Notes: generated from the sequence alone by a model not told the origin. Shown: positions 5,558-56,540, numbered from the stretch's first letter. The stretch: DNA of 64,000 nt from an uncultured Nitrososphaeraceae archaeon (GCA_963837175.1 CAWIMJ010000046.1:64001-128000); one strand, 5' to 3'. Made by a program: numbers and translations.

Positions 5558-7719
5558 CTATTTTTGTGTCTTCAATTGCTCTTTTAACTTGGCTGCTACT
5601 GTTGGTCCGATTTTTGAAATAGCGGCAAGTTTTGAATCTGATACTCTCGCAAGTTTTCTGGTATCTGTAAGACCAGCATCATACAACGCTCGAGCTCGCA
5701 CCCTGCCAATTCCTTCAAGAGCAACAATCTGAATCAGTTCTTCTCTCACACCATATTTTATTCGCGTCCGAAGATTGTGTATTTCTGTGAGCAAATCTTC
5801 TCGTTTAAGCAATTTTGCAACTTCATATAATGAATATGTTAGCCAGCCACCAATCTCCACCATTCTATGCATATCCCCAGGTTCAACTCCAACCTTGTCG
5901 CTTATCATCCTGTCACTAGTTTCATCAATCCACTCATTGAGAGCCAATAGACTCCTCGAATAATCATATTCGCTTATTGGATAAAAGAGTTCATCGCTAT
6001 GATGTTGAATTAATGAATTCAATTCTTCAAAATCCTTTTTCCTCAGAGATAATTTTGGATAGAAATCTGCACTGGTCGTAATCATCTGAAGAAAACCTAA
6101 AGTGTAACTTTTATTGTTGCCATCATTTCTTTTCGTAGTCGTACAATCCAGCGAGCCTATTGCTTTTCTAAATTCTACTGCAGTTAAAGGATCAATATAT
6201 AGTAGTGTTGTTTTTCTTCCAAAGTCTGTAGCAATATATCTATCATTTTTACTTTTTATTAAATACTCTGCTTCAAGATAGCTTAAAGCAGCATCAACTT
6301 TGAAAACAACAGTATTTTTCTGATAATTCCTTGCAAATAATGTACTTTCGAATAGATGGTAAATTTCAATTTTTTTTATTCCAGGGACTCTTGCAACGGT
6401 ACTAAGAAGATGAACCCTTATTGCTCTGTCATTAATCAGTTGTGAGCGCAGAGGCTCTGGGTTACCTAGGATATATTGGTTATACAGATCCTCTGCACTA
6501 ACTCCTGATTCCGCTACTATTATTGCTTCTCCAAAAGTATCATATTGTGGTCTACCTGCTCTACCAGAGAGTTGTTTATATTCTAAAACACTGATGGGAA
6601 TATTTCCGCCATATCCAGCATCATAGCGTAAAATACTTGCTAGAATGATACGCCTTGCAGGCAAGTTAACACCTGCGGCCAGTGTTGGAGTGGCGGCTAA
6701 TAGCTTAATTATCCCTTTTTTGAATGACTCTTCTACAATCTCTCTACTTGTGGGTCCTAATCCCGCATGATGGAATGCTACACCTTTGGCTACGAGATGG
6801 GAAAGATTCCTTGTGAGTTCAGTATCGTCGCCTTTGTTGAGGATCTTCGATGATAGCTCAATTGTCCTCTCCTGCGCAGATTTATCGAGACTTTTATAAA
6901 CCGCTTCTGCAGCCTTTAGTGGCAAGAGAAAAAGCACGTTTTCGGGTGTCTGCGAAAATTAAAGCCTGTCCACCATTCTTTAGTGAATCAATTGCAATAT
7001 CTATTGCAGCAGAGGTAACACCAACAGAAGTCAGAATTTCGAATCTACTGCCATCATTCATGCGAATATTTCCATCCTCGTAGACTCCTTCTATCAACTT
7101 TGTTGGTCTCCAATTACTTTCAATTAATTCACATCCAAGCCAGTCAGCAATATCGTCAGAATTTGCAACTGTTGCACTTAACGCAAGAATTTGTGATTGC
7201 TGATACAGTTGACATATATTGGTTAGCATCATCTCCAAAGTAGGGCCGCGTTCTCGTTCCCCAATTAAATGAACTTCGTCAGCCACAAAAAGTCCTACAT
7301 CAGAAATCCATTCAGCCCCATGTCGCATAAGCGAATCCATTTTTTCATTTGTTAAAATAATAACATCTGCATCCTCTACATCCTTTCCAGACGAATCATA
7401 GTCGCTGGTAGCAATTTTGACTCTTGTTTTTATACCATTAATATCTAAATCCTCAAGAACATGAAAATCATGGTATTTTTCAGTAGCTAATGCCCTTAAT
7501 GGAGTAAGATAAATAACCTTTAGCCCTTTTTCGATTGTTTTTATTGCAGACCATCATTGCTATTAGTGTTTTACCACTCGCAGTAGGAGTGGTAACAAGC
7601 AAGTTTTTGCCCTCTAGAAGACCCTTTGACAGAGCAAGTTCCTGTGGTGGATAAAGTGAAGAGTATCCTAGTAAACTAAGCAAGATCTTTATTTTGGCGT
7701 CTGTTATTCTTATTGTCAT
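5558..7719 (-). CDS. hel308: Ski2-like SF2 helicase Hel308 (split by two +1 frameshifts at ~7550 and ~6914)
   Basis: [36 protein letters not shown] motifs and C-terminal HhH across three frames; removing one base at each site restores one ORF. Confidence 0.92.
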
Positions 7720-7952
7720 GCCTTGAGCATATAGATAAAAAGTTACTTATTTAATTGATATTAAATCTCATCGTGCACTTTATGATAGCGATATAATACT
7801 ATAAAAATTCAAACGATTCCTAAGTTCACTAAGAAGATGAAGAACGTCAGATCTTCCCGTATTAGAAACATCTTGCTGTCAATCCTTGAAATTGAGGCTA
7901 TATTATTATATTCAGTTAATCCTTCTTATATTTAATAAAAAAGAATACTATA

Positions 7953-8255
7953 ATGAGTGGTCAAGAATATCTTTCACAGAATTTGTTATGGATTGGTATT
8001 TCATTAGGTATAGTGTTTGCTATTTTATCATATGTACCCTTTCCTTTTTCTATACCGTCCGCTATAGCATCTTTCTTCATCGTCATTTTTTATTTAAGGA
8101 AAAGAGTGATAAAAAGAATTAAAAATAAAGCAAGAATGTTTCGTAGTAGCAATAATAATAATCAGTCTTTAAACTATTATTGTATGACATGTGGTACAAA
8201 ACACAATGATGCTGCTTGTCCTAAATGTGGTTCGAAAGCCAAAAGAGTTGGATAA
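7953..8255 (+). CDS. Small membrane protein with C-terminal zinc ribbon
   Basis: Two TM segments, then CMTCG...CPKCG. Confidence 0.75.
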   Translation: MSGQEYLSQNLLWIGISLGIVFAILSYVPFPFSIPSAIASFFIVIFYLRKRVIKRIKNKARMFRSSNNNNQSLNYYCMTCGTKHNDAACPKCGSKAKRVG

Positions 8256-9423: not shown

Positions 9424-9501
9424 CTTTAAAGACGCTGATTTATCACTAATATAATAGTATTAAATCCATGCAAGGTTCTTTTTATTCATTGTTGTTGCAG
9501 T

Positions 9502-11499: not shown

Positions 11500-12566
11500 C
11501 CTGATATCTCTCAGACACTATGATCTTTTTATTGATTATATCTTGTGTTAATTGATTTAACCTCGCTTTTACATCTTTAGGTACTTTATTCTCTAAGCCA
11601 TGGAATGGTGCTAGATAGACAATACCGTCTCCTACAGCCCCTTTGCCTATTTCTAGTCCAGGTTTAAATATTTCTCCTGTAAAATTGCCGGCTTGAACCA
11701 TTTTAACAGCTTGGTCATATGCCTTATCTACATCCAAGACAAACGAGGTCAAAACAGTGTCTGGCGCTAGTTTGTTCTGATCTGAGACCGCGCCAAATGC
11801 GTATATTCCCTTTTCTTTAGCAGCCTCAATAACACCTTGACCAGATGTATCAGCTACATGTAACAAAAAGTCAGCACTAGCATTTATTTGTAATATTGCT
11901 GCCTTCCTTTCCTTTAGATGGATTATCAAAATCATCTAAATATGTAACAAGCACTTTAACGTTGCGATTCACCAACTTTGCACCTTGCTTATAGCCTTCA
12001 AAAATGTTTATGAGGTTTGGATATGTGACGTCTCCACCAACATAACCAATCACATCTGTTTTTGACATCATCCCAGCAAGTGCTCCTAACAAAAAGGATC
12101 CTTCCTGCTCCAGTGGGAAAATGGAAGCAACATTGGTTGACTTAGCAAGACCAGTAAAAACTACAAATTTTGTATTTGGATAGTCTTTTCCTACCTTTAC
12201 AGCAGGGTCTCCCCATTCAAAACCATGAGCTATAATCAAGTCATAACCTTCATGGGCATAATCTCTTAATGTAGCCTCTATATTTGTAATTGCAACATTA
12301 TCTGTAAAGTCAACTTCGTGACCATATTTAGTTTTTATTGCTTGTGCTGCATTGTATGCAAATGCGCCCCATCCTGCATCACTAAATAAAGCATCAGTTA
12401 ATAATGCTATTTTTAGGTGCTTATTGTACACCACCATAATCTGATCTGATGATGCTTTTTCTGTAACAGCAGCAACAGTAAGTTGGAAAGGTTGACCAGG
12501 TATTACTACTGCTATTATTACTATACCTATTGCTATCATGGCTAAATGCTTTCCTTTTACACCCAT
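11471..12566 (-). CDS. BMP/PnrA family substrate-binding protein (+1 frameshift at ~11903)
   Basis: GYDLIIAHGFEW, GVIEAAKEKG, GAVSDQ, VLTSF motifs; removing one base gives continuous SKGKEAAILQINASADF. Confidence 0.85.
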
Positions 12567-14859: not shown

Positions 14860-15612
14860 TTATTTTTTAGTGGGATCCCAATGCAGACCGCATTCTTTTT
14901 GTGTCGCATTTTCCCACCACCATCTACCTGCTCGTGGATCTTCCCCAGCATGAATAGCTCTTGTACATGGTTCACAACCTATGCTTGGATAACCACTATC
15001 ATGTAACTTATTATATGGAACATTATTTTTATGAATATAATCCCAGATCATTCCATTAGTCCAGTCTGCTAACGGATTAATCTTAGCAATACTGCCATGT
15101 GAAGAATCAATTTCAAGTTTATTGATATTAGTCCTAGTTATTGCCTGCTCCCTTCTCAGGCCAGTAATCCACCCATCCAGATTACTTAACGCTCTATTAA
15201 GTGGATGTACTTTTCTAATTTCGCAGCAAAGCTTTCGATTTTCAACACTTTCATACATCAAATTCATACCTTTTATTTTGACCATTTCTTCGATTTCTCT
15301 TTGTTCAGGAAAATATACTTCAATTTGTATATCATATTTTTTTCGTATCGCATCCATTACATCATAGGTTTCCTGGTTGAGTCTACCAGTATCCAATGTG
15401 AAAATTCTGGTTTTTTCTTTGTTGATTTTTACCATCATATGTATAATAATTACATCTTCAGCACCAAAACTTGATGCCAAAGCTATCTTCGGTGCATAAG
15501 CATTAATAGCCCATTCCAGGACTTCCATTGCAGATTTGTCCTCCATTTCTTTTGCAATTTTTTTGATCTGCAATTCAGTTGGTTTTAATATATCAACATT
15601 TGTTTCAGACAT
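14860..15612 (-). CDS. cysH: APS/PAPS reductase (Fe-S type)
   Basis: LDTG, CC pair, WITGLRREQ, GYPSIGCEPCT, ECGLH. Confidence 0.95.
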   Translation of the reverse strand: MSETNVDILKPTELQIKKIAKEMEDKSAMEVLEWAINAYAPKIALASSFGAEDVIIIHMMVKINKEKTRIFTLDTGRLNQETYDVMDAIRKKYDIQIEVYFPEQREIEEMVKIKGMNLMYESVENRKLCCEIRKVHPLNRALSNLDGWITGLRREQAITRTNINKLEIDSSHGSIAKINPLADWTNGMIWDYIHKNNVPYNKLHDSGYPSIGCEPCTRAIHAGEDPRAGRWWWENATQKECGLHWDPTKK

Positions 15613-25908: not shown

Positions 25909-26099
25909 TGTAATAATCCATTATATTTTCTTGAATAATAATTGCTCGGAACCAATAATCCGATCAGTTACATTTACATGCTAAGTGAATATCATAATAC
26001 ATGTTTAGAACTAGTTTTATTGTCCTTAATATTGTTTAAAGTTTGACATTTTGGATGAATCTACTGATCCTTCCAGTTAGTTTTATTTAGTATTTTATT

Positions 26100-27719: not shown

Positions 27720-27763
27720 TATAGTTTATTGATTAGTGTATGTGATTTAAAGTATCTGATTTA

Positions 27764-41075: not shown

Positions 41076-41077
41076 AT

Positions 41078-41492
41078 TTACTTCTTTGTCTCCCTGATGA
41101 ACTCGTCATATATTGCCTTGACTCTATCAGCCGCAAGCCCAGAACCCTCTTCAATACCTGTCTGTGTGACTTTGATTTTATCCATTACAATAATAGCCCC
41201 TACATCTTCCCTAATTTTTACTAAGCCTGGAAATACTCTAGAAAGCCTATCTGATAAAGCTTTAAAATCAAAAGGCTTTTCCATGAGCTTTATATCTTTA
41301 ACAAAAGAACCGTTGAGAATTAATTTAAGGATTTCATGACCTTCTATATTATCGAGTACAATATCAAGTTTTTCATCAATACCAGTTAGCGTGCCATTGT
41401 ATATTTTTTGGTCAGAAGTTTCTATAGAAACTTTTTTCCCCAAGAATTGCACTATCTCTTCGCCAAATTTCCGATTAAGTACTGCGAGCCAT
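41078..41492 (-). CDS. Sm-like (Lsm/SmAP3-type) RNA-binding protein (+1 frameshift at ~41486)
   Basis: Sm1/Sm2 motifs plus C-terminal extension; corrected N-terminus MAAVLNRKFGEEIVQF. Confidence 0.85.
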
Positions 41493-41660
41493 AAATATTT
41501 CTATGAGGATATGCTTTAAGTAGTATAATATGAATTTTAATATATTATCTCTGGCATTATGCTGAATAAACTATTAAAATCAGAGCAATATGATGTAGTT
41601 AAGTTATCCATTAAGATAGATCAAAAATATATCTCGGAGAACAAGGTGAGGATTATGGAT

Positions 41661-42248: not shown

Positions 42249-42638
42249 GTCTCTTCTTCAGGTCATTTGGTTTGATTCCCTTTATATTTTAATAAAATAA
42301 ATAAAAATTTTGTGTAACCTTTATTTATTATTATTTCAGTATACACTCGTTATTATACTCTTAGATGCACTGTTTTGGACCAGCTTTGGTCTATGATGAT
42401 TTTAATTACTGCTAAAAGTAAATTAATTAATGAGAAATCTGCAACTGAATATATAGTTATCAATATATCTGAATTTATAGTAGCTATTAATATCCTATCA
42501 CTTCGAGTATATTAATACATCAAAGGCTGGCTCAACAACAGTACGTAATACGGCTACGGCTTTACAACAAGAAAATAATAGGTATGAAAAGATGGCAGAA
42601 GAAGAAAGTAAAGAATACGCTGACATGGCAATGCAGAG

Positions 42639-43235
42639 TTAATTGTGTGGTGCTATAAATTCTCTATGTCTTCTTTCGTATTCAGTGATTTGTGAGTCGA
42701 ATTGTAATGTAATTCCTATTTCATCTAGACCTTCAAGCAATGTCTTTTTTCTAGATTCATCTATCTCGAAGTTCATAATTTTGGAGCCAACTATTATCTG
42801 TTGGTTGGACAAGTCGATCTCAATATCCACATCATCAGCAGTTATAAACATAACATCTACTTCTTTATGACTAAGCCTAACTGGCAAAATTCCATTTTTG
42901 AAGCAATTATTATAGAAAATATCAGCAAAAGACGGTGCAATCACTGCCCTGAATCCATAATCTAGAATAGCCCATGCAGCATGCTCTCTTGAACTTCCGC
43001 AACCAAAATTATCACGCGTAAGCAATATCTGTCTACCAGCATATTTCGGATCATTTAACACAAAATTACTTTTCGGTTTTCCATCTTTATCAAACCGCCA
43101 ATCATAAAATAGATACCCACCATAGCCAGTTTTCTGAACTAGTTTAAGAAATTGCTTTGGAATTATTTGATCCGTATCAACATTAACCATGTCAAGCGGA
43201 GTTGCTTTGCTTTTAATAATTCTAAAAGGTTCCAT
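42639..43235 (-). CDS. leuD: 3-isopropylmalate dehydratase small subunit
   Basis: NVDTDQIIPKQFL, NFGCGSSREHA, FADIFYNN. Confidence 0.96.
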   Translation of the reverse strand: MEPFRIIKSKATPLDMVNVDTDQIIPKQFLKLVQKTGYGGYLFYDWRFDKDGKPKSNFVLNDPKYAGRQILLTRDNFGCGSSREHAAWAILDYGFRAVIAPSFADIFYNNCFKNGILPVRLSHKEVDVMFITADDVDIEIDLSNQQIIVGSKIMNFEIDESRKKTLLEGLDEIGITLQFDSQITEYERRHREFIAPHN

Positions 43236-43295
43236 TGTTTCAATCGGCTCCGTTATTTCAATTCTTTCTTATCTTCATTTTCGAGTCCGCTCTTC

Positions 43296-44720
43296 TTACA
43301 ACCATTCTCTCACATCTACAAAGTGTCCTTCGATTGCAGAAGCGGCTGCCATAATTGGGCTTACGAGATGGGTTCTTCCACCGCTTCCCTGTCTTCCTTC
43401 AAAGTTGCGATTAGAAGTACTTGCACAGCGTTCGCCAGACTCAAGTATATCAGAATTCATTCCAAGGCACATGCTGCAACCAGATTCTCGCCATTCAAAG
43501 CCAGCATCTTTAAAAACTTTGTCTAAACCTATCTTTTCTGCTTGCATTTTTACCTGTTGTGAACCAGGAACTACCATTGCTCTAACTTTGGATGACACCT
43601 TTCTTCCTTTTATCACAATTGATGCTTCCAGTAGGTCTTCTAATCGAGAGTTAGTACATGAGCCAATGAACACACGGTCTAATGGAATATTTGTAATAGG
43701 CGTACCAGGTTCAAGACCCATATATCGTAAAGCACGTAATGCAGATTTTCTCTCGTTTTCATTACCCTGTGCAAAATCTTCAGGGTATGGAATCGAACTG
43801 GTGACATCAATGGCCATTGAAGGATTAGTTCCCCAACTGACTTGTGGAGCAAGATCATTAATATTTACAGTAATAGATTTATCAAATGGTGCATTATAGT
43901 CAGTTTTCAAATTCTCTCGCCAAAAATCAACCATTTTTTCAAACTGTTCATCCTGTGGAGCATACGTTCTTCCTCTGATATAATCGAAAGTAATTTCATC
44001 AGGCGCTATCAATCCTGCTCTAGCTCCAGCTTCAATGGACATATTGCATATAGTCATTCTCTGTTCCATAGAAAGTTCAGCTATTGCTTTGCCTTTGTAT
44101 TCTATAACAGTGCCTGCACTGCCTGAAGTTCCTATCTTTCTAATAATGGAAAGTATCATATCTTTAGCAGTAACAGCATGTGAATTTTTACGGCGACCTG
44201 TAAAATTAATTGCAAATGTTTTGGGTTTATCTAGCCATATACACTGGGTAGCCAAAACATGTTCAACTTCACTGGTACCTATACCAAACGCGAATGTACC
44301 AAAAGCACCATGCGTTGAGGTATGACTATCGCCACAAACAATTACCATTCCCGGAAGAGTGATACCAAGCTCAGGACCAATGACGTGAACTATGCCTTGA
44401 TTTGGATTTTTAATATCAAAAAGTGTAATCCCAAATTCTTTGCAATTTTGTGCTAAGGTCTGAATCTGTACAGAAGAAATTTGATCAATTAACGGAAATG
44501 ATCTGTCTTTTGTTGGCACGTTATGATCCATGGTTGCAAATGTTAGATTAGGGCGTCTCACTTTTCTATGATTTAAACGAAGGCCATCAAACGCTTGTGG
44601 TGAAGTAACCTCATGAATTAAATGGCGATCTACATATATTAGAAATGGCCCGCTATCATTTTCTTTTGTAGTAGTTATAACATGACTCTTCCAAATCTTC
44701 TCTAATAGCGTCTTTGGCAT
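43296..44720 (-). CDS. leuC: 3-isopropylmalate dehydratase large subunit
   Basis: [42 protein letters not shown]. Confidence 0.97.
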
Positions 44721-44818
44721 CCTATTGATTAAGTCATATCGGAAATATAATCATATGCAGAAACTATTAATGATATTGATAATGCTTAAATTTGGTATTG
44801 ATTCTGCTATTTCATATA

Positions 44819-45479
44819 ATGCATCCCCAAGACACCAGATACTCCGACTATATCGTCGAGCAAATCAAAAAAGGAACTACTACTTGTGCATTGATATGCA
44901 AGGATGGCGTAGTTCTAGCTGCGGATACAAGAGCAAGTGCAGGTTTCTTTATTGCCGATAGACATGTAATGAAAATTCAGAAAGTTGATAGACATATAGG
45001 TATGACAATTGCGGGTGGTGTGGCTGACGCCCAGAACCTTGTTGACGTTATGCGTTACAATGCAAACATCTATAGGATTTCAAATAGAGAAGTAATGCCT
45101 GTAAGTTCAGCTGCAAGACTCTGTTCTAATGTATTATTCAATCAAAGATACTTTCCATATTATGTCCAGATTATTCTGGCTGGATATGACAATAAAGGAG
45201 GTGGACAGATCTATAACATTGATCTCTTTGGCTCAATGACAACTGAAAAGTTCATTTCTACTGGCAGCGGCTCTCCTGTAGCCTATGGCTATCTTGAATC
45301 CGAATACAAAGAAGCATCAAGTGTGAATGAGGCTTATAAAATAGCAATACAGGCAATTGCTGGCAGCGATTAGACGAAATTCAGGTACGGGCGATAACAT
45401 CAATGCAGTTATTATAGATAAAGATGGCTATCGCGAGTTATCGAATGAGGTAAAAGAAGCTGTTGGTGCGGTCTACTAA
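44819..45479 (+). CDS. psmB: Proteasome beta subunit (+1 frameshift at ~45362)
   Basis: KG|TTT autocleavage site, AADTRAS, TGSGS; corrected C-terminus AAAIRRNSGTGDNIN... Confidence 0.93.
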
Positions 45480-45682
45480 TAGATGTGAGGATATATCTTT
45501 TCTAAGATATTCTAATATATATAAATAAAGCTAATAACGGAAACAAAAAGGAAATAGATTCCAGTTAAATAATATTAAGAGAATTTTTATTTGTTTCTAT
45601 AGCTTTACATTTTAACTCTTAATGCCAAAATATATTCTCCATGCTATATAATATTCTCCTTTTAGAATAAAATATTCTGTTT

Positions 45683-47333
45683 ATGCTGTCTAATAATATA
45701 AATTTTCGAGATGATTTCTCTAAGGAAGAAAAACTAGTTCTTAATTCCCATTTTTCCAACACTGATAGACGAGTTTTTGCAATAATAACACCCAGACAGG
45801 TAGATAGAGGAGCATTAATGTCAAGGTATTCTAGAACAGATAAAACCATGCGGCGTATTTTTTTAGATGAATTTATAAAAAACCCAAATAGAGGGCAAGA
45901 ATTCTACGAAAGAATATTATTAGAATATGGAGACGATTCAGTCGCAGAACTTGGGGAAGCACAAGTTGCGATAGAATGGATATCAAATATTGCTGCAAAG
46001 AAGATTGAAGACCATCGAATTGGGCTCTCTTACCTTGAAAAATCTTCGCGGTATGTGGCATTTGATCGAAAAATCAATGGCCATTATAAGTACTGTAGAG
46101 AAGAGAATATTATGCAGTCACCCTTTGCTGATCAATACATCCAGGCTTGCGATCATGCTTTTGATGTATATAGCAAGAATATCCAATCAATGCAGAAATT
46201 TATTTCTGAAACAGAACCAATTGAGCGCTTCTTATTTTTCGATTTTATATCAAAACAAGAAACAGCCTATAGCAATTTGAAAAGTCAAAAAGATATTGAA
46301 TCTGCACAGAGAGTATATAATTCGACGATCAGATCCAAGACGCTTGATACTCTCCGTGGGCTGTTGCCAGCATCTACTCTTACTAATTTGGCCATCACAG
46401 GAAATGGAAGAGCATTTGAATATCTGCTATCAAGCATGTTCGCTTCAAATTTGAAAGAAATGAAAATGCTAGCAAGTCAACTGCATTCAGAACTCAATCT
46501 GGTTATTCCCGCCTTCATAAAGAGAGTAAATGACAAGTATGGGCAGGCTTTACAAGCATATCTAACGGATACAAGGAGCACCATAAGTGAACTTGCTCAC
46601 TATTATATAAAAAATATTAAAGCAGATAAAAATCCCCATTCTGTAAAGCTCGCTGAATTATGAAGATAATTGTGAAGCCGAAATAAAAGTGGCCTCTGCT
46701 ATTCTATACGAACAGGCCAGCGGCCAATCTCTTGAAAAAATTACACATTATATCCGGTCTATTCCTGCTTATGATAGATACAAGATAATTCAAACTTACA
46801 CAAAACTCCGGGCTAATCGAAGATACCGACCTGGTAGAGCATTTGAAATGGTAGAATATACATTTGAAATGTTCACAAACTTTGGCATGTTTCGTGACCT
46901 ACATCGACATAGGATTCTTACTATGGAAAGACAGTTGCTCTCTACAAGACACGGCTATGATATTCCGGCAGAAATTATTAACCTTGGCATTGCCAAAGAT
47001 TTCAAAGACTGCATGTATAAATGTAATGAGATTTATGAAATGATCTCAAAGAAATACCCTACAGAGGCCCAATATGTTGTTAATTTTGCATACAAATACC
47101 CCTATTTTGTAAAACTCAATTTGCGGGAAGCTTGTCATATGATTGAATTAAGAACTGTTCCTCAAGGGCATCCTGATTATCGTAAAGTGTGTCAGAAAAT
47201 GTATAAACAAATAAAACGTGTTCATCCTATATTGGCTAAAGGAATAAAATTTGTTGACTTAAGAAAATATGAATTAGAGAGATTACACGCTGAGAAAAAT
47301 GTAGAAAAGAAAAGACGTGGACTAATAACCTAA
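45683..47333 (+). CDS. thyX: Tandem-domain flavin-dependent thymidylate synthase (+1 frameshift at ~46651)
   Basis: [15 protein letters not shown], second domain [16 protein letters not shown]. Confidence 0.9.
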
Positions 47334-47731
47334 ACAAATAACAAGAGAATTGTTGTCAAATAGCGGAGCATAATTTTTTATCTAGTGCTCCATTCTCCTA
47401 AACATACATTTTATAGTAGATCATCATTATATAATGTTATATAATAATTATAATTCTAGAGAATATTCTAATAAAGTAAGATAGAATTAACATAAATTAC
47501 TCAATTAATATATAATATCTTATTTTTAGCCTACTTGATGGTAGTGTGTCCAGAGATTAGTTAAAAATGGAAATGCAGAAAATTTGGTTAATGGAAAATA
47601 TACTTCTAATTAGGAGATTTTTATAGGGCTTCTATATAGCACATATAGAAATTTTCTATAATAAAATTTAGGATTATAATTCATATTATGAATATACAAT
47701 CGTTAAAAGCCATTCCAGTATTTTATAGTCA

Positions 47732-47986
47732 ATGCGTAAAAGAATAGTATCTACGACAATAGTCTTAACGTTGTGTTTTGGGCTCATTTTAGGAACTATA
47801 GGTTCTGCAGGATCAGTAGTGGCACAAGAATATCAAACAACCACAGCAGTTAATCAAACAGATGGAAGTAATATTACAAGTAATGGTGGCACGACTTCTG
47901 GTAATGCTACTACAGCCGAACAGTTCGAGAATATAACCCATGGAGGTGGGCCTGGTGCTGGTGCAACAAATCAATCTGAAAGATAA
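47732..47986 (+). CDS. Small secreted low-complexity protein
   Basis: Signal peptide ending VVA-Q; Thr/Gly/Asn-rich with several NxT sequons. Confidence 0.7.
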   Translation: MRKRIVSTTIVLTLCFGLILGTIGSAGSVVAQEYQTTTAVNQTDGSNITSNGGTTSGNATTAEQFENITHGGGPGAGATNQSER

Positions 47987-48496
47987 AGATAAAAGACAAT
48001 CAGAAATTCCTTGTTGCTAAGAAAAAGACAACAGAAAAAAATTTTTTCAAAATTCTTTTTTAACTATATAGTTTTATATATCAATTGTTTAACTTGGAAA
48101 TTATTCAAAATCATAACATTGTCTTTTCTTTATTTTCTTTGTAGTAGTCATTTAACTACCCACTATACATTAGTTAACAAATACAACAGAGTATCAAATT
48201 CATGATACACATCATTATTATTATAGCCAGTGCCAACGATCAGCGCAAGTATACAATAAGTGATTCAACATGTTCAATCTGCAGTTCCTGCTAATGATTA
48301 TCTAATATATCAAACTATTTTTCTTAAAATTGCTACTTGATTCTAAATAAGTCAATGATTATAATAATAGAAGTTTATAGTCTATTCAATATATTATTAC
48401 TATCTTTCAAATATATCCGCACAGGAAAAAGTGTTATTTTACTATAATTGATGGGTCACAATTGATTTATTTTATAAAAAAAAGGAGGATTCCTTT

Positions 48497-50017
48497 CTAT
48501 TCAGTTACATATGCTCTTTCGCCGTGTTGTGCCAGATCCAGTCCAATTTCTTCTTCTTTTGGTGAAACTCTGATTCCACCTGGCCACACCTTATCCATGA
48601 TCTTGATAATTAGTGCGGTGATACCCATTGCCCATGCTAAAGCTGCAAATGCCCCGACAGCGTTTTCATAGAGTTGTGCGGGGTTTCCAAAAACAAGGCC
48701 GTTGTCTCCCCATGGCGTAAATCTTTTTTCAGCAAATAGTCCGGTAGATAATGCTCCTGCAAGTCCGCCAATACCATGTACACCCCATGTATCTAGTGCA
48801 TCATCCCATTTGCGTTTGTTCTTGAACATTACTGCCGCATAGCAAACAAGCGAAGCTATTATACCAATGATAAGTGCAGACATTGGCGATACAAATCCAG
48901 AGGCAGGCGTAATGGCTACTAGGCCAGCTACAGCACCAGATGCTGCACCCACAGTAGATGGTCTTCCTGTATGAGCCCATGATATTAATGCCCAAGTTAC
49001 TGCTGCCGTACCAGTTGCTATTTGGGTTGCAACAAATGCACTTGTTGCATTTGTGGCGGCTGCTGCAGCGGACCCAGCATTGAATCCAAACCAACCAGTC
49101 CATAGGCAGCGCTGCTCCTAAGACTACCATACCTATATTGTGGGGTTCCATCGGTATCTTTCCATATCCTAGTCTACGCCCAAGCATCAGAGCAATTACT
49201 AATCCAGACCAGCCTGAAGTAATATGAATTACAGTTCCTCCCGCAAAGTCAAGTGATCCTAAGACAACCAGTCCAACCAAACCCACAATAACCAGGATTT
49301 GCACCATAATTATCTGGTGCAAGTTCCCATGTCCAGTGAGCAGCAAAGTCATAGACAAATGTTGCCCAGAGAACTATAAAAACTATAAATGCACTAAATT
49401 TCATTCGTTCTGCCAATGCTGCCACAATCAGAGCTGGTGTAATTATTGCGAACATCATCTGAAATATCATATAAGTCTGATGTGGAATTGTAGTGTCCCA
49501 CAATCGCACATAAATTATTCGGTCCTATGCCCCCGTATGCAATTGATGGAACATCATGAAGAACGTTATTCAAACCTGCCCAATCAAGTGTGCCTATAAA
49601 TCCATATCCCCCTGCGTCTGGTCCAAACGCCAATGAGTATCCGAATAATGCCCATTGCATTGCAATTACTCCTGTCGTTATGAATACCATATGTAGTGTG
49701 TTTACTGCATTCTTTTGTCTTGCTAAACCACCATAAAAGATAGCCAAGCCAGCAGGAGTCATCATTAACACAAGTGCTGAAGATGTCAGCATCCAAGCAT
49801 TGTCTCCATGATCTATCGGACAGGGAATTAGATTTCCTTCAGCAGTCTTATTATAACTCCCATCCTTGTTTTTCTCAAAGCACTGATATTTCACAGCAGG
49901 ATCGTCTTCTGTATAGGCTAATGCGTTGCCTAACAAATTTACTGAAAACAATCCTGTCAATCCAACACCAACAAGAATCAATAGAATTAATCTTGATCCT
50001 ATCCCCTTTGGTATCAT
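48497..50017 (-). CDS. amt: Ammonium transporter (three +1 frameshifts)
   Basis: [59 protein letters not shown]. Confidence 0.95.
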
Positions 50018-51001
50018 TATCTGCAGATTCAGTATAGAACTATAAATAATATTATTAGTTTCTTATTATTTACAATGTGATAATAAATATTAGAAAATAC
50101 TAAAAAAGTATTTTTTATAATTGGTGGATGATAATTATTCTTATTTATAAAATTTAGTATATTATTTTTTCTTTTGCTTTTTAAGTTTAATTATATTATT
50201 TATTAGTGTTTTAATAAACTTGTTTATATCATTAAAACCTAGAATAATTTTATGAAACAAAATAAGTTAATACAATGGTTCAAGTTTTCATTAACAGTTT
50301 GGTCGTCATCTTCATTAATTCATATTTATGACTTAAAAAATAAGCGCCTTTCTAAGCAAGCAATACATAGAGAATTATCCTTCTTAAATCATTAATATTT
50401 TAATAAATAGTAACCAACAACACTACTAGATGGAGTCTTTCCACACCTCGTTGTAAAAGCTTCAATACCTTTAAGAAAATGCACACCATTACATTTTTCA
50501 ATGGGTAACACATGCCTAATTCCAAATGACTTTTTTGTGATGACAAGAAATATCTTGACTGCAAATGACAGTTATCCAAAGAAAAGTAGTACCATCTTAT
50601 GATTTACTAAAATATGAATTCGGTAACTAAGCATTAGAAGAATTTGAATAAAGAGTATTACTTTCTATAAAATTTTAAATGTATATGAGTTTTCGTTGAA
50701 CGAACAGCTTTTCTTTCATCTTGTAAATACAGCCTGAATTACTAGGATCTATATATATGGTGTTTTAGCATATGTTGATGGCATATTAACCAATTCTTTC
50801 CGACATAACTTGAAATAGCCGAGGTAAGATTATTTTTAATGATAGAATAAAAAGATTGAACGCTAGTTGATATCAATAAAACGGTATTGTTTGTATGAGC
50901 TCATTCTCATCAATGGGATTAGATATTGTATGAAAGTAAACTATATTTTGTGTTTAGGTAGATTTTTATGGATGCTATAAGAACAAATCCATTGAATTAG
51001 A

Positions 51002-51665
51002 TTGACGTCCTCTCCATCTGTCAATATTCTTGAGAGAGCAGATGAAAAAATTGTGATTAAATTTAATAATGTTCCAAGACAGTATGTAAATGCTATTAGA
51101 AGAATTTCGATAAGCGAAGTACCTACTTTAGCTATAGATGATGTTGTAATTTTAGAGAATTCATCGGTTATGCACGATGAAGCAATTGCACATAGACTAG
51201 GTCTTGTCCCATTACAAACAAATCTATCAAGATTTGTAATGCCTCATGAATGCGATTGTAAGAGTACATTGGGCTGCTCAAAGTGCAGGGTATTATTAGT
51301 GTTAGATTCAGAGGCAAATGAAAAAACCAAAGTTGTCACGTCTGGAGAGCTCGTGTCTGAAGACGAGCATATAAAGCCAGTTAGCAAAGATATTCCAATT
51401 ATCACTCTTGCTCCAGGTCAGAAACTGAAATTTGAGGCTTATGCCCGACTAGGAATTGGAAGAGATCATGCAAAATGGCAGCCAACTTCAGGCAGCAATT
51501 GTTAAAGATGGAAAGGATGGGAACGAATCTATCCTTGTTATTGAGACTAACAAAGCATTAACAGCAGAAGAAACACTGATGGCAGCTATTGACAAAATAA
51601 ATTCTAAAATTAAGAACTTCAACCATATAATCCAACATCTTGAAATACCTAAGAATTCCTCCTAG
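51002..51665 (+). CDS. rpoD: RNA polymerase subunit D/Rpo3 (+1 frameshift at ~51491)
   Basis: NAIRR..ISEVPTLAID, DEAIAHRLGLVP, DHAKWQP. Confidence 0.95.
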
Positions 51666-51715
51666 GTACATTTATTTGGGGATTCAAGATAAATGACGGA
51701 GACGAAGAATAAATT

Positions 51716-52066
51716 ATGCTTGTTAACACTTTAATGGATAATACGATCTGGACTCTTCGTAGAGCTTTCAAAAAGAGTAAAGCTCAAATTTGGAGGGCTC
51801 TTGAATACGAGCTTTCAAGTCGAAGATCAAATAGAAGAGAAGTTAATGTCGGTCGATTGTCAGATATTACCAAAGATGATGAAGTAGTTATTATTCCTGG
51901 TAAGGTATTAGGTTCTGGTGTGATAGATCATAAATTAACAATTTGTACCTTTTCAATCTCGGAAGGAGCGGCAAAAAAGATATTAGAATCTGGGGGAAAT
52001 ATTATAACACTTGATAGCTTGATAGATAAATATCCTGATGGTAATGGAGTGCGCATAATTGGCTAA
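51716..52066 (+). CDS. rpl18e: 50S ribosomal protein L18e
   Basis: REVNVGRL, IPGKVLGSG; gene order after rpoD. Confidence 0.95.
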   Translation: MLVNTLMDNTIWTLRRAFKKSKAQIWRALEYELSSRRSNRREVNVGRLSDITKDDEVVIIPGKVLGSGVIDHKLTICTFSISEGAAKKILESGGNIITLDSLIDKYPDGNGVRIIG

Positions 52067-52565
52067 TAAAGAAGAATTGCTAAAAAGATCATCTTCACAG
52101 GCAGTACAGAACAAACAAATAGTAGTTGACGTAGCTAATTGCATCTCTGGTAGAATTTGCTCTCATGTTTCAAAACTATTGCTTCAGGGAAATAGAGTCG
52201 CAATTGTAAATGCTGAAAAAGCTATGCTATCTGGAAAGAGATACAAAACAATCGAGCTCTACAAAGAACACCTTGAAATTAACTCAGTCACAAATCCAAT
52301 TCATGGCCCTTTCCATCCTAGAAGACCTGATACAATACTAACGAAAATGGTAAGGGGTATGATACCAAAACGCAAGAGTAGTGGCATAGAAGCTTTTAAA
52401 CGATTAAGAGTATACATAGGCATTCCTGAATACTTAAAGAATACAGAGATGGAATATTACGACGACTCAAAGATTACAAAACCATCATCCTATTATATTA
52501 CAGTTGGCGAAGTAGCAAAAGAAATTGGATGGTCTGGCATAGGAGTAGAGCCAATAGATGAATAA
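52059..52565 (+). CDS. rpl13: 50S ribosomal protein L13
   Basis: VNAEKA, GPFHPRRPD, VRGMIP, RLRVYIG. Confidence 0.95.
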   Translation: MANKEELLKRSSSQAVQNKQIVVDVANCISGRICSHVSKLLLQGNRVAIVNAEKAMLSGKRYKTIELYKEHLEINSVTNPIHGPFHPRRPDTILTKMVRGMIPKRKSSGIEAFKRLRVYIGIPEYLKNTEMEYYDDSKITKPSSYYITVGEVAKEIGWSGIGVEPIDE

Positions 52566-53001
52566 AATAGATCTTTATCCAGGTCAAAGAAAAACATGTC
52601 GAGCTGTAGCCACAATTTCTAAAGGAAGAGGCAAAGTCAGAATCAATAACATACCTGTGGAACTTTTACAACCAACAGTAGCTAAGGAATTAGTGATAAC
52701 ACCTCTCCTCCTAATAGGAGAATTGAGAAATAAGATTGATATAAATGTCAATGTAGAAGGAGGAGGATTCATGGGGCAGGCTTTTGCAAGTGCTGTTGCT
52801 ATTTCTAAAGCTCTAACTGGCGAAGGAAAAGGAGGAAGAGATCCAAAAGATCATCCGTTAGCAAAAAATGTACGTGAAGAAATTAGGAGAAAAATTACTG
52901 AATTTGATAGACACTTTCTTGCAGGTGATCCAAGACAGAGCGAATCCAAGAAGTTTGGAGGGCCTGGAGCTAGACGGAGAAAGCAGAAATCGTACCGTTA
53001 A
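52558..53001 (+). CDS. rps9: 30S ribosomal protein S9
   Basis: GGGFMGQA, KKFGGPGARRRKQKSYR. Confidence 0.97.
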   Translation: MNKIDLYPGQRKTCRAVATISKGRGKVRINNIPVELLQPTVAKELVITPLLLIGELRNKIDINVNVEGGGFMGQAFASAVAISKALTGEGKGGRDPKDHPLAKNVREEIRRKITEFDRHFLAGDPRQSESKKFGGPGARRRKQKSYR

Positions 53002-53109
53002 TTCTGCTTTTCTATTTTATTTATTATCTATATTGATAACAATGCAAAATTAATTCATCCATTACCCCTTACGCTTATTTCTCTACTTCTAACAACAAAT
53101 ATAGTCTAT

Positions 53110-53161
53110 AATAATGAATAATAATGATAATAATAAAATAATAATAATAATAATAATAATA
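53110..53161. repeat. (AAT)n microsatellite
   Basis: Imperfect AAT tandem run in the intergenic spacer. Confidence 0.8.
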
Positions 53162-53356
53162 TCTATGAAATATGATAATATTCGAAATTATGTCTTATCA
53201 GGTGGCTTGGTGAGATCATAGAATTTAGGATGTTTCGTATATGATATATTTTGTTGAATGGAACGAATAGTCTTCATGAAATCTTTAGGTCATAAATTAG
53301 AATAGTTATCGATTGACATGCATATATAAGTGCAAGGCAATTTAATTTACAGACTA

Positions 53357-54046
53357 ATGACAGATACCAAGTTAACTGTTGTTCGACTAACCATGGATGG
53401 CGATAAATTTGAAATTTTAGTAAAACCCGATCCCGCTCTAGAATACAAACTGGGTAGAAGAACGGACCTTTCCAGCGTCCTTATTGCTGATGAGATATAT
53501 TCAGATGCAAATAAAGGTTCAAGGGCAGCCAGTGAAAAGTTGACAAAACATTTCAAAACAGCAGATCCTACAGAAATTGCTAAACAAATCCTTTCTCGGG
53601 GTGAACTTAGTTTGACAACCGATCAGCGTCGAAAAATAGTAGAAGACAAGAAGAAGCAAATTATTCAGTATATTAATAAAAGTTTTGTAGATCCTAAGAC
53701 ACATATTCCACATCCAATTTTGAGAATCGAAAGTGCAATGGATGAGGTAAGAGTTATTATTGATCCATTCAAGAGAGCCGAAGATCAGGCTAAGACTGTA
53801 GTTGATGCGCTTCGGAAGATTTTGCCCCTAAAATCGGAAATTTTGCGATTAACGGTAACAGTTCCACCAGAATTTTCTGCACAATCCTACAATGTATTTA
53901 AAACTATTGGGAATTTTAAGGGAGAGCATTGGCTGGAGAATGGTTCTTTAAGAGTCACATTAGAAATAAATGCAGGAATGAAGGGCACCTTCCTAGATAG
54001 AATAGGATCTATAACAAAGGGTTCTGCTCAGGTATTAGAAGAATAG
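53357..54046 (+). CDS. Ribosome maturation factor SBDS/Sdo1
   Basis: FEILVKP, LTTDQRR, DPKTHIPHP; precedes exosome genes. Confidence 0.93.
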   Translation: MTDTKLTVVRLTMDGDKFEILVKPDPALEYKLGRRTDLSSVLIADEIYSDANKGSRAASEKLTKHFKTADPTEIAKQILSRGELSLTTDQRRKIVEDKKKQIIQYINKSFVDPKTHIPHPILRIESAMDEVRVIIDPFKRAEDQAKTVVDALRKILPLKSEILRLTVTVPPEFSAQSYNVFKTIGNFKGEHWLENGSLRVTLEINAGMKGTFLDRIGSITKGSAQVLEE

Positions 54047-54156
54047 ATAATTTCGATACTTAAAATATAAGTATGTTCTCACTGACCCAAAAGGTAGAAA
54101 AACGATGAAAAGAATCATTTCGTATATTGAGGCGTTTACATTGGAGGTTATTTATT

Positions 54157-54978
54157 ATGGGCATGCAAGAAATTAAAAGAAAGTTTGTTGTTCCAGGTGA
54201 CAGGATCACTGAAGGAAATGTCAGGCCCTCAATGAACGTAATTAAAATAGGCAATTCTATTATTGCTACTCGAATCGGGATTGCAGAAGCAGGAAGAGAT
54301 GGCATTAAGGTTATACCACTATCTGGTGTTTACATTCCTCGAGTAAATGATATAGTAATAGGCAAGATTACCGATCACTCTTCACTTTCTTGGGAAGTAG
54401 ACATTAACTCTTGCTTTTCTGGCCATTTACCCGCACAGGATGTTTTTGGAAGAGACTTTTCTCCAGCTAGGGATGATATGGGCAGACAGTTGGCAATAGG
54501 AGATTTAATCACAGCAAGAATTATTGTATTTGATAGGACAAGAGATCCTATGTTAACTATCCAAGACAAGGATCTAGGAAAGATCCCTCGTGGAGAATTC
54601 TTAAAAATTTCTGCAACACGTGTTCCGCGTCTAATTGGAAAGCGTGGTTCTATGATACAAACAATCGAACAGGCCACACAAACAAGAGTTTTAATTGGTC
54701 AAAATGGAATTGTAGTCGTTACGGGTAGAAATCCAGAAGGAATAAAACTAGCCGTCAGAGCTATTAGAATGGTTGAAGAAGAAGCTCATACATCAAACCT
54801 TACACAAAGAGTCAAAGTTTTGTTGAATGTGCCTGATACTGCTCCTCCACAGCCAACAGAAGGGGGAGCGTCAGTAACTCAGATTGAAAAAGGTCAGAAG
54901 GTGGAGGAGATCCAGTCAACTATTCAAGAAGTAGAAGAAGAGATAAAAGAAGAAGTAGAAAAAGGTGAAAAATTATAA
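54157..54978 (+). CDS. rrp4: Exosome RNA-binding subunit Rrp4
   Basis: VVPGD, S1 domain, VPRLIGKRGSMI KH, IGQNG. Confidence 0.95.
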   Translation: MGMQEIKRKFVVPGDRITEGNVRPSMNVIKIGNSIIATRIGIAEAGRDGIKVIPLSGVYIPRVNDIVIGKITDHSSLSWEVDINSCFSGHLPAQDVFGRDFSPARDDMGRQLAIGDLITARIIVFDRTRDPMLTIQDKDLGKIPRGEFLKISATRVPRLIGKRGSMIQTIEQATQTRVLIGQNGIVVVTGRNPEGIKLAVRAIRMVEEEAHTSNLTQRVKVLLNVPDTAPPQPTEGGASVTQIEKGQKVEEIQSTIQEVEEEIKEEVEKGEKL

Positions 54979-55718
54979 TGACCCAAACAAGAAATTTAAT
55001 TGATGAAAATGGAAGACGAACTGATGGCCGCACTGCCGATGAACTACGGGAAATCAAGATAACTGTAGGTGTAGTTAAAAATGCAGACGGTTCGGCTTTC
55101 ATAGAATTTGGTAAGAATAAAATCGTCGCAGCGGTTTATGGTCCAAGAGAAGTACATCCAAAACATATGGCACTTCCAGACCGCTGTGTTCTACGATGCA
55201 GATATCATATGTCTCCATTCTCTACTGATACTCGCAAGAACCCTGCTCCATCAAGAAGAGAAATTGAAATTTCCAAGGTAATGAGAGAAGCATTAGAACC
55301 AGCATTGATGTTGGAAGATTATCCACGAGCTGCAATAGATGTATTTGTTGAGGTTTTACAAGCAGATGGCGGTTCAAGATGTGCCGGTATTACGGCCGCA
55401 TCTATCGCGTTAGCTGATGCAGGTATCAATATGCGTGACATTGTAGCATCATGTGCTGCAGGTAAAGTTGACGAGAAAATTGTTCTTGATATTAATGATA
55501 CCGAAGACAAAGAAGGCGGAGCGGATATGCCAGTTGCATATATGCCACATCTTGAACAAGTAACACTTTTACAACTTGACGGCATATTAAGCCATGAACA
55601 GTTTGACGAATGTGTAGATAAGGCAATAAAGGGTTGCGAGATAGTTTATGAAATCCAGAGGCAGGCATTAATGCAAAAATACTTTGGTAATGAAACGGAG
55701 TTGAAAGAAGAACAATGA
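54978..55718 (+). CDS. rrp41: Exosome catalytic subunit Rrp41
   Basis: RTDGR, VYGPREVHP, YPRAAID, ADGGSR. Confidence 0.96.
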   Translation: MTQTRNLIDENGRRTDGRTADELREIKITVGVVKNADGSAFIEFGKNKIVAAVYGPREVHPKHMALPDRCVLRCRYHMSPFSTDTRKNPAPSRREIEISKVMREALEPALMLEDYPRAAIDVFVEVLQADGGSRCAGITAASIALADAGINMRDIVASCAAGKVDEKIVLDINDTEDKEGGADMPVAYMPHLEQVTLLQLDGILSHEQFDECVDKAIKGCEIVYEIQRQALMQKYFGNETELKEEQ

Positions 55719-56540
55719 GCTCATCAAAACGTTCAACAATAATAGTAGAACATTTACGAAGACAGCAAATGTGGGATGCAATTTCAAAGGGAAAAAGACT
55801 TGATGGAAGGAATTTAGATGATTTAAGGCCGCTCGAGATTGAATTAGATATTATTAAGAAAGCGAACGGCTCTGCAAAGGTAAAATTAGGTAATTCAGAA
55901 GTAATTGCAGGGGTAAAAATTGAGACAGGAGAGCCATTTGAAGGACTTGAAAACAAAGGTGCATTAATCCTGTCTGCAGAAGTACTCCCTACAGCATCGC
56001 CTTATATTGAACCCGGTCCTCCAGATGAAGAGACCATTGAACTTGCAAGAGTGGTAGATAGAGGTATAAGGGAGTCGGAAATGATAGATCTAGATAAATT
56101 GGTTTTAGTTCCTGGCAAAATAGTTTATACGATATTTGTTGATTGCAGCATCATCAATGCAGATGGTAATCTGTTTGATGCTACGTCCTATGCAGCAGTT
56201 TCGGCATTGGCTAGTAGTAAAGTTCCTATCTTCGAAATGCAAGATGACAAAGTAGTTCATAGTGGCAATAATCAAGACCCACCAATCACTACAATACCGA
56301 TATCAATCACAGCAATACGAATTGGGGAAGCAGTAATTTTAGATCCCACATCTGAAGAAGAAGCATGTATGAATGCAAGAATCACCATAACAACAAATTC
56401 CAATGGGGACTATACTGCCATACAGAAAGGATCGACAGGTGCTTTTACTATTGAACAGATAAAGAAAGGCAGCAGAGACAGCAAGAAATAAAGGAGAGGA
56501 AGTACGAGCCAAATTAAAGGAGTTGACTAAAGATGGTTAA
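55715..56540 (+). CDS. rrp42: Exosome subunit Rrp42 (+1 frameshift at ~56468)
   Basis: RLDGR, EPGPPDE, ARVVDRGIRES, DGNLFDA; corrected frame ends at TAA 56540, overlapping L37ae. Confidence 0.94.

Follow-up and report, generated by a model that had tools for sequence, protein, structure and literature searches.

Frameshifts in conserved genes of an uncultured Nitrososphaeraceae archaeon as probable long-read consensus errors at putatively methylated GCWGC and AGTACT

Conserved genes split by frameshifts

The window, i.e. the whole stretch of 64,000 nucleotides analysed here, carries a series of conserved genes that are interrupted at 11 sites (Table 1). The letters at all 11 sites are those given in the first-pass annotation, and Pfam searches confirmed that the broken genes are the ones it had named. 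The hel308-type helicase is distributed over three ORF pieces, across which the DEAD, Helicase_C and archaeal domain 4 matches are spread. The Bmp gene occupies two ORFs that cover profile positions 3-174 and 172-299, ThyX is split between two Thy1 domains, and the ammonium transporter Amt lies in four pieces. Lsm, the proteasome beta subunit, the Rpb3-like RNA polymerase subunit and Rrp42 complete the list of broken genes confirmed with Pfam. Beyond these, we saw no frameshifted conserved gene in the window. Of the many other long ORF overlaps listed, one, at 14860-14978, was scanned against Pfam and rejected as a frameshift, as it consists of two complete genes for a PAPS reductase and an ATP sulfurylase. 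An ORF-junction scan of the window with relaxed criteria gave too much noise to be of use.

Table 1. Frameshift sites in the window, with the surplus base in square brackets. G001 and G005 are same-genus genomes; X1, X2, X8 and X12 are independent soil-metagenome contig sets.
Feature	Coordinates	Strand	Sequence at the break	State in relatives or independent contigs
hel308-type helicase break	6909..6917	-	GCAGCC then TTT; surplus T at 6915	6/6 relatives' loci one base shorter, with GCAGCC or GCCGCC kept
hel308-type helicase break	7546..7551	-	GCAG[A]C; surplus A at 7550	GCAGC in 6/6 relatives' loci
Bmp/PnrA-like substrate-binding protein break	11898..11903	-	GCTG[C]C; surplus C at 11902	GCTGC-T in G001 (the only relative locus left after filtering)
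Lsm break	41484..41489	-	GC[G]AGC, immediately after an AGTACT; surplus G at 41486	G absent from all covering X1 and X12 contigs
Proteasome beta subunit break	45359..45367	+	GCT[G]GCAGC; surplus G at 45362	G absent in X12; GCT-GCTGC in G005
ThyX break	46648..46653	+	GCT[C]GC; surplus C at 46651	C absent in X1 and X12; GCTGC in G005
Ammonium transporter (amt) break 1	49105..49110	-	[G]GCAGC; surplus G at 49105/49106	G absent in all four contig sets at full depth and in G005
Ammonium transporter break 2	49263..49268	-	[G]ACAAC, no GCWGC; surplus G at 49263	G absent in G005, X8, X12 and one X1 contig
Ammonium transporter break 3	49495..49520	-	within a stretch that exceeds its G005 counterpart by 25 nt	
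Rpb3-like RNA polymerase subunit (rpoD) break	51491..51497	+	[G]GCAGC; surplus G at 51491/51492	G absent in all four contig sets and in G005
Rrp42 break, near the C-terminus	56468..56473	+	[G]GCAGC; surplus G at 56468	G absent in G005

By comparison with same-genus genomes or independent soil-metagenome contigs, the surplus base could be placed at 10 of the 11 sites. Eight of the ten placed bases lie inside or touch a GCWGC motif, and one is located 2 nt away. The window holds 83 copies of GCWGC, and the junctions in or touching the motif represent 0.75% of all inter-base junctions; the chance of at least eight of ten insertions falling there is P = 4e-16. The proposal that the breaks coincide with GCWGC therefore stands for most sites, with corrections at two of them. 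At the helicase break starting at 6909, the second C of GCAGCC had been taken as the surplus base, but the alignment puts the extra base at a T of the TTT that follows. The second amt break (49263) had been said to fit the motif given one extra substitution, but GCWGC is present there in neither the window nor G005. The break near 49503 in the same gene had been described as ambiguous, and it is so: the surplus base is not placeable within the elongated stretch.

Absence of the extra bases from independent sequences

As independent data we used contigs from four soil-metagenome studies, which are assembled contigs and not reads, and in which coverage gaps of X2 and X8 carry no meaning. In one of the four, a loose end consists of Illumina adapter sequence. 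At five sites (41486, 45362, 46651, 49105 and 51491) the extra base is absent from every covering contig, and these contigs are otherwise near-identical to the window. Same-genus genomes without the surplus base were found for 7550, 6915, 11902, 45362, 46651, 49106, 51492 and 56468. The X1 contig that spans rrp42 (54974-56803, 1.83 kb) differs from the window by 0 substitutions and one gap somewhere along its length. Next to the rpoD insertion, position 51497 is A in the window and G in all four contig sets as well as in G005.

Since the extra bases are missing from near-identical contigs of other metagenome studies, the frameshifts at these five sites are assembly errors and not biology. This result is in line with the first-pass annotation, which had regarded the bases as artefacts and recoding as much the less likely reading; the independent contigs and the relatives now effectively exclude the latter. 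It is scarcely credible that the extra bases are real and that the genes either are pseudogenes or are decoded by way of programmed +1 frameshifting or editing. A point in its favour is the second X1 contig at 49263, which agrees with the window at ten variant positions close by and has no gap there, so that this single break may be genuine in this strain. Against it stand the near-perfect matches around the missing base at the five sites, the reading frames of the relatives, which are intact, and the sheer number of at least ~60 such breaks genome-wide, in essential genes. As an explanation of the motif sites, recoding is already refuted by the independent contigs.

Words enriched at frameshifts across the genome

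To survey the whole genome we collected ORF junctions at which removal of 1 nt would join two open frames, each of at least 80 codons (285 junction windows, the deletion class), and as a control class 223 junction windows that would need a 1-nt insertion. Scoring the one-base-insertion derivatives of every 5-mer was abandoned as too degenerate, with overlapping sets crediting GGAGC, GCGCC and others, and plain 6-mer and 7-mer counts were used in its place. The best of the 4096 six-mers in the deletion class were GGCAGC, GCGAGC, AGGCAG and GCTCGC. Counted as reverse-complement pairs, GCGAGC/GCTCGC, i.e. GC[G]AGC, was observed 26 times versus 1.43 expected (control class, 6 versus 0.96), GGCAGC/GCTGCC, i.e. 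[G]GCAGC, 32 times versus 3.22 (control class, 5 versus 2.16), and AGGTACT/AGTACCT, i.e. AG[G]TACT, 15 times versus 1.36 (control class, 1 versus 0.90). Any of these three forms is present in 70 of 285 deletion-class windows versus 12 of 223 control windows. GCAGC[C] was not enriched (6 observed, 2.82 expected). In the control class GGGGGG ranks first (6 observed, 0.13 expected), as is typical of homopolymer deletions in long-read data.

When comparing the source assembly (G000) with G005, the assembly of a second species, we found 18 one-base insertions in G000 at GCWGC, with 306 sites intact, and 4 at AGTACT, with 33 sites intact. CCWGG and GGWCC had 0 insertions (143 and 112 sites intact, respectively), and GCSGC had 1 (43 intact). 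The miscalled share of conserved GCWGC sites amounts to ~3-6%. The genome-wide enrichment of indels at GCWGC over other words, suggested as a check by the first-pass annotation, is thus strongly positive. GCWGC is upheld as an affected word, but not as the sole one, because errors of this kind also occur at AGTACT. The errors are motif-specific throughout the genome. The G005 assembly displays the same error forms, which would fit a shared methylome and, equally well, a platform-specific context error. G018, a genome from a neighbouring genus intended as a platform control, had none of the forms in its 22 junction windows; it is uninformative because GCWGC occurs just 212 times in its 349 kb, its junctions resemble ordinary gene overlaps, and it is maybe not a long-read assembly.

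Methyltransferase genes and the probable origin of the errors

A six-frame search through stops for C5-cytosine methyltransferases (PF00145) gave 0 matches at E<=0.001 in the genome, which is 91.47% complete, while the same search was positive in 9 of 14 control genomes. On the other hand, PF01555 (N6_N4_Mtase) has 10 matches, and five full-length genes encode SPPY at motif IV, which we take as the mark of N4-cytosine enzymes. In G000 they lie at C39:67371-68171, C17:39860-40954, C22:74521-75342, C4:19300-20178 and C56:28677-29939. The nearest solved structures in the PDB are distant beta-class relatives and include N4-cytosine enzymes, e.g. M.PvuII. PADLOC labels the five genes as type II MTases, and MTase genes of type II-like character number at least eight in the genome; family libraries and a homologue search returned generic names and no specificity. 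Orthologues of the five SPPY-type genes, mostly full-length or nearly so, are found in all four same-genus genomes searched; the exceptions are the C17-type enzyme, split or partial in G005, the C56-type enzyme, split or partial in G006, and the C4 enzyme, for which G006 has only a 36% paralogue. A homologue search with the C39 enzyme (267 aa) returned generic names only; the names point to Nitrososphaeraceae / Ca. Nitrosocosmicus. NCBIfam offered only sub-threshold CcrM or adenine-MTase matches for the methyltransferases, and N6_Mtase (PF02384) yielded nothing above the cut-off. Phosphorothioation was rejected, with DndC absent and a DndD-like match sub-threshold only.

No nuclease beside the MTase genes was named by PADLOC, with 23 of 28 neighbouring ORFs of at least 90 aa scanned, and a novel nuclease is possible. 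GCWGC is not avoided in the genome (observed/expected 1.11, rank 996 of 1024), and thus nothing hints at a cognate restriction enzyme. The first-pass annotation had proposed m5C, m4C or a less usual mark and had suggested a search for a cytosine MTase. This search was negative for the C5 type, which makes m5C of the TseI/ApeKI type unlikely, and positive for the five SPPY amino-methyltransferase candidates. From the gene content, i.e. no C5 enzyme and five genus-conserved candidates, N4-methylcytosine appears to be a likelier mark than m5C.

Modified bases as a source of motif-specific nanopore errors had been taken as established, and the Listeria monocytogenes literature bears this out for GCWGC, reporting that G5mCWGC systems lead to ONT errors at this word. 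In the reported benchmark the median was one error per assembly, and GCWGC errors occurred only in strains with a GCWGC methyltransferase; for a GAAG6mAC/GT4mCTTC system, ~2% of GAAGAC sites were described as miscalled. The cases are alike in the word, in the small share of miscalled sites, and in errors that survive polishing and break gene calls and typing. According to these reports, however, 5mC is the mark in Listeria and mismatches make up most of the errors, whereas here the errors are insertions of a single G/C in fixed forms, the search for a C5 enzyme was negative, and AGTACT is affected as a second word. TseI/ApeKI-type systems share the recognition word but are described as a C5 methyltransferase plus a cognate nuclease, whereas here PF00145 is absent, no nuclease was recognised and the word is not avoided. 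M.AbaBS3I from a freshwater Chloroflexi is reported to be a GCWGC-specific N4-cytosine methyltransferase, verified by TseI protection. It resembles what the gene content here suggests, i.e. m4C at GCWGC introduced by an amino-methyltransferase without a restriction partner, but it belongs to another phylum, and it is set beside the five candidates by its published description.

In our judgement the frameshifts are quite probably long-read consensus errors, most probably from nanopore data, at GCWGC and AGTACT sites that are probably methylated, with m4C as the likelier mark. Both palindromic words would be methylated in native DNA, so that basecaller and polisher would misread the signal there. 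The single base inserted is nearly always a G, or a C when read from the opposite strand. A few per cent of the GCWGC sites have acquired it, in the two fixed forms GC[G]AGC and [G]GCAGC, and at AGTACT it gives AG[G]TACT. The five genus-conserved, apparently orphan beta-class SPPY amino-methyltransferases are candidate makers of the mark. The DNA modification itself is inferred from the error pattern and the gene content. Some observations do not sit easily with modification: in the literature, nanopore errors caused by modification consist mainly of C>T and G>A substitutions that are strand-specific, whereas those here are insertions, with a single such substitution seen (51497); moreover, GCWGC is not depleted, and 49263 is off-motif and possibly real.

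It is rather improbable, though consistent with several of the data, that the errors arise in sequencing or polishing from context without any base modification, GCAGC and AGTACT simply being hard words in AT-rich genomes. Two species' assemblies show identical forms, the insertions are fixed in form and asymmetric ([G]GCAGC enriched, GCAGC[C] not), as a quirk of the signal model would produce, and the case for modification is an indirect one. Yet both words are short palindromes of the kind recognised by methyltransferases, the composition-matched palindromes CCWGG and GGWCC are free of insertions, and in the Listeria benchmark, as reported, unmodified GCWGC with an error rate of a few per cent could hardly have escaped notice. 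The five candidate enzymes are, moreover, common to both species. We regard it as similarly unlikely that the mark is 5-methylcytosine set by a TseI/ApeKI-type C5 methyltransferase whose gene either falls within the ~8.5% of the genome missing from the assembly or has been disrupted by an assembly error of its own. The incompleteness of the genome leaves room for such a gene, the archaeal GCWGC enzymes tabulated in a review are all m5C or predicted m5C, one of them from an ammonia-oxidising archaeon, and the published GCWGC nanopore errors come from G5mCWGC. The PF00145 search, however, read through stops and was productive in the control genomes, five SPPY-type enzymes are present and conserved, and m4C at GCWGC is documented elsewhere.

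Consensus error at methylated GCWGC is an already known kind of artefact, and no new biological mechanism is revealed. In practical terms, this assembly and at least one other of the genus contain ~60 or more false frameshifts, many of them in essential genes, and rpoD, the proteasome, the exosome, amt, thyX and hel308 are affected. Such frameshifts would lead to pseudogene annotation, lower completeness scores and mislead inferences on pangenome or metabolism. Short reads allow their repair, and they can be spotted by GCGAGC, GGCAGC and AGGTACT at ORF junctions. Our literature search found no methylome for this group of soil nitrifiers, for which the error footprint supplies two candidate methylation words and five candidate enzymes. 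We tentatively propose, with slightly more doubt than confidence, that a genus of soil ammonia-oxidising archaea methylates GCWGC and AGTACT genome-wide with N4-methylcytosine by means of core orphan SPPY enzymes, encoded amid housekeeping genes and common to several species. This would be an undescribed methylome. In a bolder version, a mark bulkier than methyl would account for insertions in place of the usual substitutions. If the proposal is true, core orphan enzymes would suggest a role in regulation, or one linked to replication, and not in defence.

Surplus bases in conserved genes

By gene content (amt, thyX, exosome, archaeal Lsm and an Rpb3-like subunit, all by Pfam), the genome under study, G000 (3.81 Mb, 58 contigs, about 34% G+C, rated 91.47% complete), is that of an ammonia-oxidising archaeon. 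The window is G000 C46:64001-128000. Close homologues of one of the genome's methyltransferases bear names that point to Nitrososphaeraceae / Ca. Nitrosocosmicus. The first-pass annotation had reported eleven frameshifts in conserved genes of the window, nine of them attributed to one extra base in or beside GCWGC. The observation is confirmed: the letters agree exactly with that account at 11 of 11 coordinates, and Pfam finds each named gene in consecutive pieces in different frames. We compared the window with same-genus genomes (84-93% DNA identity), using one 736-kb contig of G005 and smaller loci from five other relatives, and counted isolated frame-shifting indels (length not divisible by 3) within well-conserved alignment. 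The resulting placements are listed in the table; in motifs the surplus base is set in square brackets.

Frameshift sites in the window, their alignment to same-genus relatives and the soil-metagenome runs (X1, X2, X8, X12) lacking the base
Gene	One-base insertion in the window	Base left out in every covering contig	Pieces (Pfam)
Hel308-type helicase	7550 (A), 6/6 relatives' loci		DEAD domain divided between two pieces
Hel308-type helicase	6915, 6/6 relatives' loci
Bmp	11902 (C), single relative locus passing the filter		Profile positions 3-174 + 172-299, two ORFs
Lsm		41486: X1, X12
Proteasome beta	45362 (G), versus G005	45362: X12
ThyX	46651 (C), versus G005	46651: X1, X12
Amt	49106 (G), versus G005	49105: X1, X2, X8, X12	Profile positions 1-76, 80-136, 132-199, 253-399, four ORFs
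Amt	49263 (G), versus G005
rpoD (Rpb3-like)	51492 (G), versus G005	51491: X1, X2, X8, X12
Rrp42	56468 (G), versus G005

Some placements had to be revised. At 6909-6915 an extra base is indeed present, but the relatives keep GCAGCC or GCCGCC, and the alignment puts the surplus base at the T immediately after, not at the second C. The proposed GCWGC fit at 49263 fails, as neither the window nor G005 has a GCWGC there. The third amt break lies inside a stretch 25 nt longer than in G005, where alignment does not place the base; this stretch (49495-49520, gaps of 1, 4 and 20 nt) corresponds to a loop of the ammonium transporter. The window holds 83 GCWGC sites, and 0.75% of junctions lie in or touch the motif; at least 8 of 10 breaks would do so by chance with P = 4e-16.

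Two further regions deserve mention. In ThyX (45683-47333) each ORF piece has a separate Thy1 match, and removal of the surplus C at 46651 would yield a single protein with two tandem Thy1 domains. At 26000-28600 the minus strand has short ORFs that overlap one another and match no Pfam family, and several one-base gains and losses separate the region from G005 (26225, 26377, 26636, 27464, 27603); it is either non-coding or a gene that evolves fast or has decayed.

A search of public runs found 20 that contain the window sequence at least in part, and 14 of these have half or more of the sampled words (about 70%). Assembled contigs from four studies (X1, X2, X8, X12) were compared over window positions 40000-59999. 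Several contigs that leave out the base are near-identical to the window around the site. Record 7 of X1 (54974-56803) shows no substitution and one gap, which would fit loss of the G at 56468. Since a loose end in X2 is Illumina adapter, at least this run is short-read data. Thus, for the motif sites the reading as sequencing artefacts is confirmed by absence of the base from independent contigs. At 49263, where the surplus G lies at no motif, the contigs without it are the divergent ones (about ten variant positions, 49176-49317), and another X1 contig has the window's bases at these variant positions and no gap; this may be a genuine strain-level amt frameshift or an error that arose in another way.

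Beside a motif, a substitution occurs only at 51497, with A in the window and G in all four runs and in G005. Therefore, the true sequence is ...CAGCAGCG..., as opposed to ...CAGGCAGCA... in the window. This G>A change, one base after the GCAGC carrying the surplus G, is of a kind described for methylation-induced nanopore errors. The window also differs by one base from all four runs at 48028, 48035 and 48112, two of these in a purine-rich intergenic stretch and 48112 outside it; all three may be additional errors of the assembly, here in DNA outside genes.

Genome-wide junctions and a second word

Across the whole genome we collected junctions of two same-strand stop-free frames (at least 80 codons each, overlap at most 120 nt) that are fused by a one-base deletion (class 1, n = 285) or, as control, by a one-base insertion (class 2, n = 223). 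Among 4096 six-mers, class 1 is headed by GGCAGC (22 observed versus 1.62 expected), GCGAGC (15 versus 0.72), AGGCAG and GCTCGC (11 versus 0.72), followed by GCAGCA, AGGTAC (15 versus 1.86), GGTACT and GCTGCC (14 versus 1.62). Class 2 is headed by GGGGGG (6 versus 0.13), then by words common where genes truly overlap; the GGGGGG junctions are deletions in a homopolymer and represent an additional, ordinary type of error in the assembly. When each word was counted together with its reverse complement, class 1 was enriched in GC[G]AGC (26 versus 1.43, P = 7e-24; class 2, 6 versus 0.96), [G]GCAGC (32 versus 3.22, P = 3e-21; class 2, 5 versus 2.16) and AG[G]TACT (15 versus 1.36, P = 2e-11; class 2, 1 versus 0.90). 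GCAG[A]C, the hel308 form, is only mildly enriched (11 versus 3.11), and GCAGC[C]/[G]GCTGC shows no enrichment in class 1 (6 versus 2.82), so that the error is asymmetric. Any of the three enriched forms occurs in 70 of 285 class 1 windows versus 12 of 223 in class 2, which means that about 60 false frameshifts are already detected under these strict criteria. The expected excess of indels at GCWGC over other words is thus found genome-wide.

Per-site rates were taken from best-hit alignments to G005 (336 kb), which also cover intergenic regions with their genuine indels: G000 has 18 insertions beside 306 intact sites at GCWGC, 4 beside 33 at AGTACT, 0 beside 143 at CCWGG, 0 beside 112 at GGWCC, 1 beside 43 at GCSGC, 8 beside 742 at GATC and 11 beside 575 at AGCT, some AGCT sites overlapping GCWGC. 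The whole genome retains 5,615 intact GCWGC and 834 intact AGTACT sites. AGGTACT in G000 aligns with AGTACT in G005, e.g. at C43:26331, C46:29581, C48:24724 and C12:116328, and on the other strand the error reads AGTAC[C]T. Because the same kind of error affects two unrelated palindromes, a pair of methylation specificities seems a better reading than a single odd sequence context. An AGTACT also stands directly before the Lsm break (window 41474-41489).

Modification or platform

G005, a different species, has GCWGC forms at 11 of 49 class 1 and 1 of 38 class 2 junctions of its own, and at 9 places with an intact GCWGC in G000 it carries a one-base insertion. On its contig C19 the insertions GC[G]AGC, GCT[C]GC and GCTGC[C] occur as in G000. 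The same error forms fit a methylome common to the genus or, equally, a platform quirk; the neighbouring-genus genome G018, poor in GCWGC sites and with junctions that resemble ordinary overlaps, does not separate the two. An argument against a modification-independent quirk comes from Listeria, because in R10.4.1 assemblies of 78 isolates (median one error) GCWGC errors occurred only in the clone with a G5mCWGC system; earlier work tied thousands of mismatches in ST87 Listeria to GCWGC modification. A point against modification is that the nanopore errors it has so far been described to cause are mainly C>T and G>A substitutions specific to one strand, not insertions as in G000. On this indirect evidence, base modification is the probable cause of the surplus bases. 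Published work already describes motif-specific consensus errors where DNA is methylated, also at GCWGC, and hence the frameshifts are a known kind of artefact; the insertion form and the second word AGTACT may be new, as leads only.

Candidate enzymes and the nature of the probable mark

When the whole genome was searched with profiles in six frames, PF00145 (C5-cytosine methyltransferase) gave no match and N6_Mtase none over threshold, whereas one Dam-family enzyme and ten PF01555 matches came up. Motif IV reads SPPY in five full-length PF01555 genes and DPPF, DPPY or HPPY in the others. SPPY marks N4-cytosine enzymes, and M.ScaI, which recognizes AGTACT, is an N4-cytosine enzyme. A cytosine methyltransferase encoded elsewhere in the genome had been predicted; no gene of the C5 type was found in this 91.47% complete genome, while the five SPPY genes are candidates, and m5C is accordingly unlikely as the mark. 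Orphan m4C methylation of GCWGC is documented for the Chloroflexi amino-methyltransferase M.AbaBS3I, and a review table lists every archaeal GCWGC enzyme in it as m5C or predicted m5C. On balance we favour m4C with moderate confidence.

PADLOC classed all of these methyltransferases as type II and named no nuclease among the neighbours scanned, which were 23 of the 28 ORFs with 90 aa or more in the eight loci. Methyltransferase genes at C4:19300-20178 and C12:139551-140687 lie among housekeeping genes; according to NCBIfam, one methyltransferase has the shikimate-pathway genes aroE, aroD and dehydroquinate synthase II beside it and another has aIF-2 beta. Two methyltransferase genes adjoin at C22:73371-75342 (394 aa, HPPY, permuted; 274 aa, SPPY). 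None of these loci has a recognisable nuclease close by. GCWGC is not avoided in G000 (observed/expected 1.11), and the search of G000 found no Dnd phosphorothioation genes. Each of the five SPPY enzymes has an orthologue (74-93% identity) in all four same-genus genomes searched, except that the C17-type gene is divided into two frames in G005 (C25:43220-44258), the C56-type is only partial in G006, and the C4 enzyme has only a 36%-identical paralogue there. For two of the five, G018 also encodes a close orthologue (67% and 77% identity).

Our literature search turned up no methylome paper for this archaeal group. A further point that may be new, as a lead only, is that this genus of soil nitrifiers would methylate both GCWGC and AGTACT with conserved orphan enzymes.
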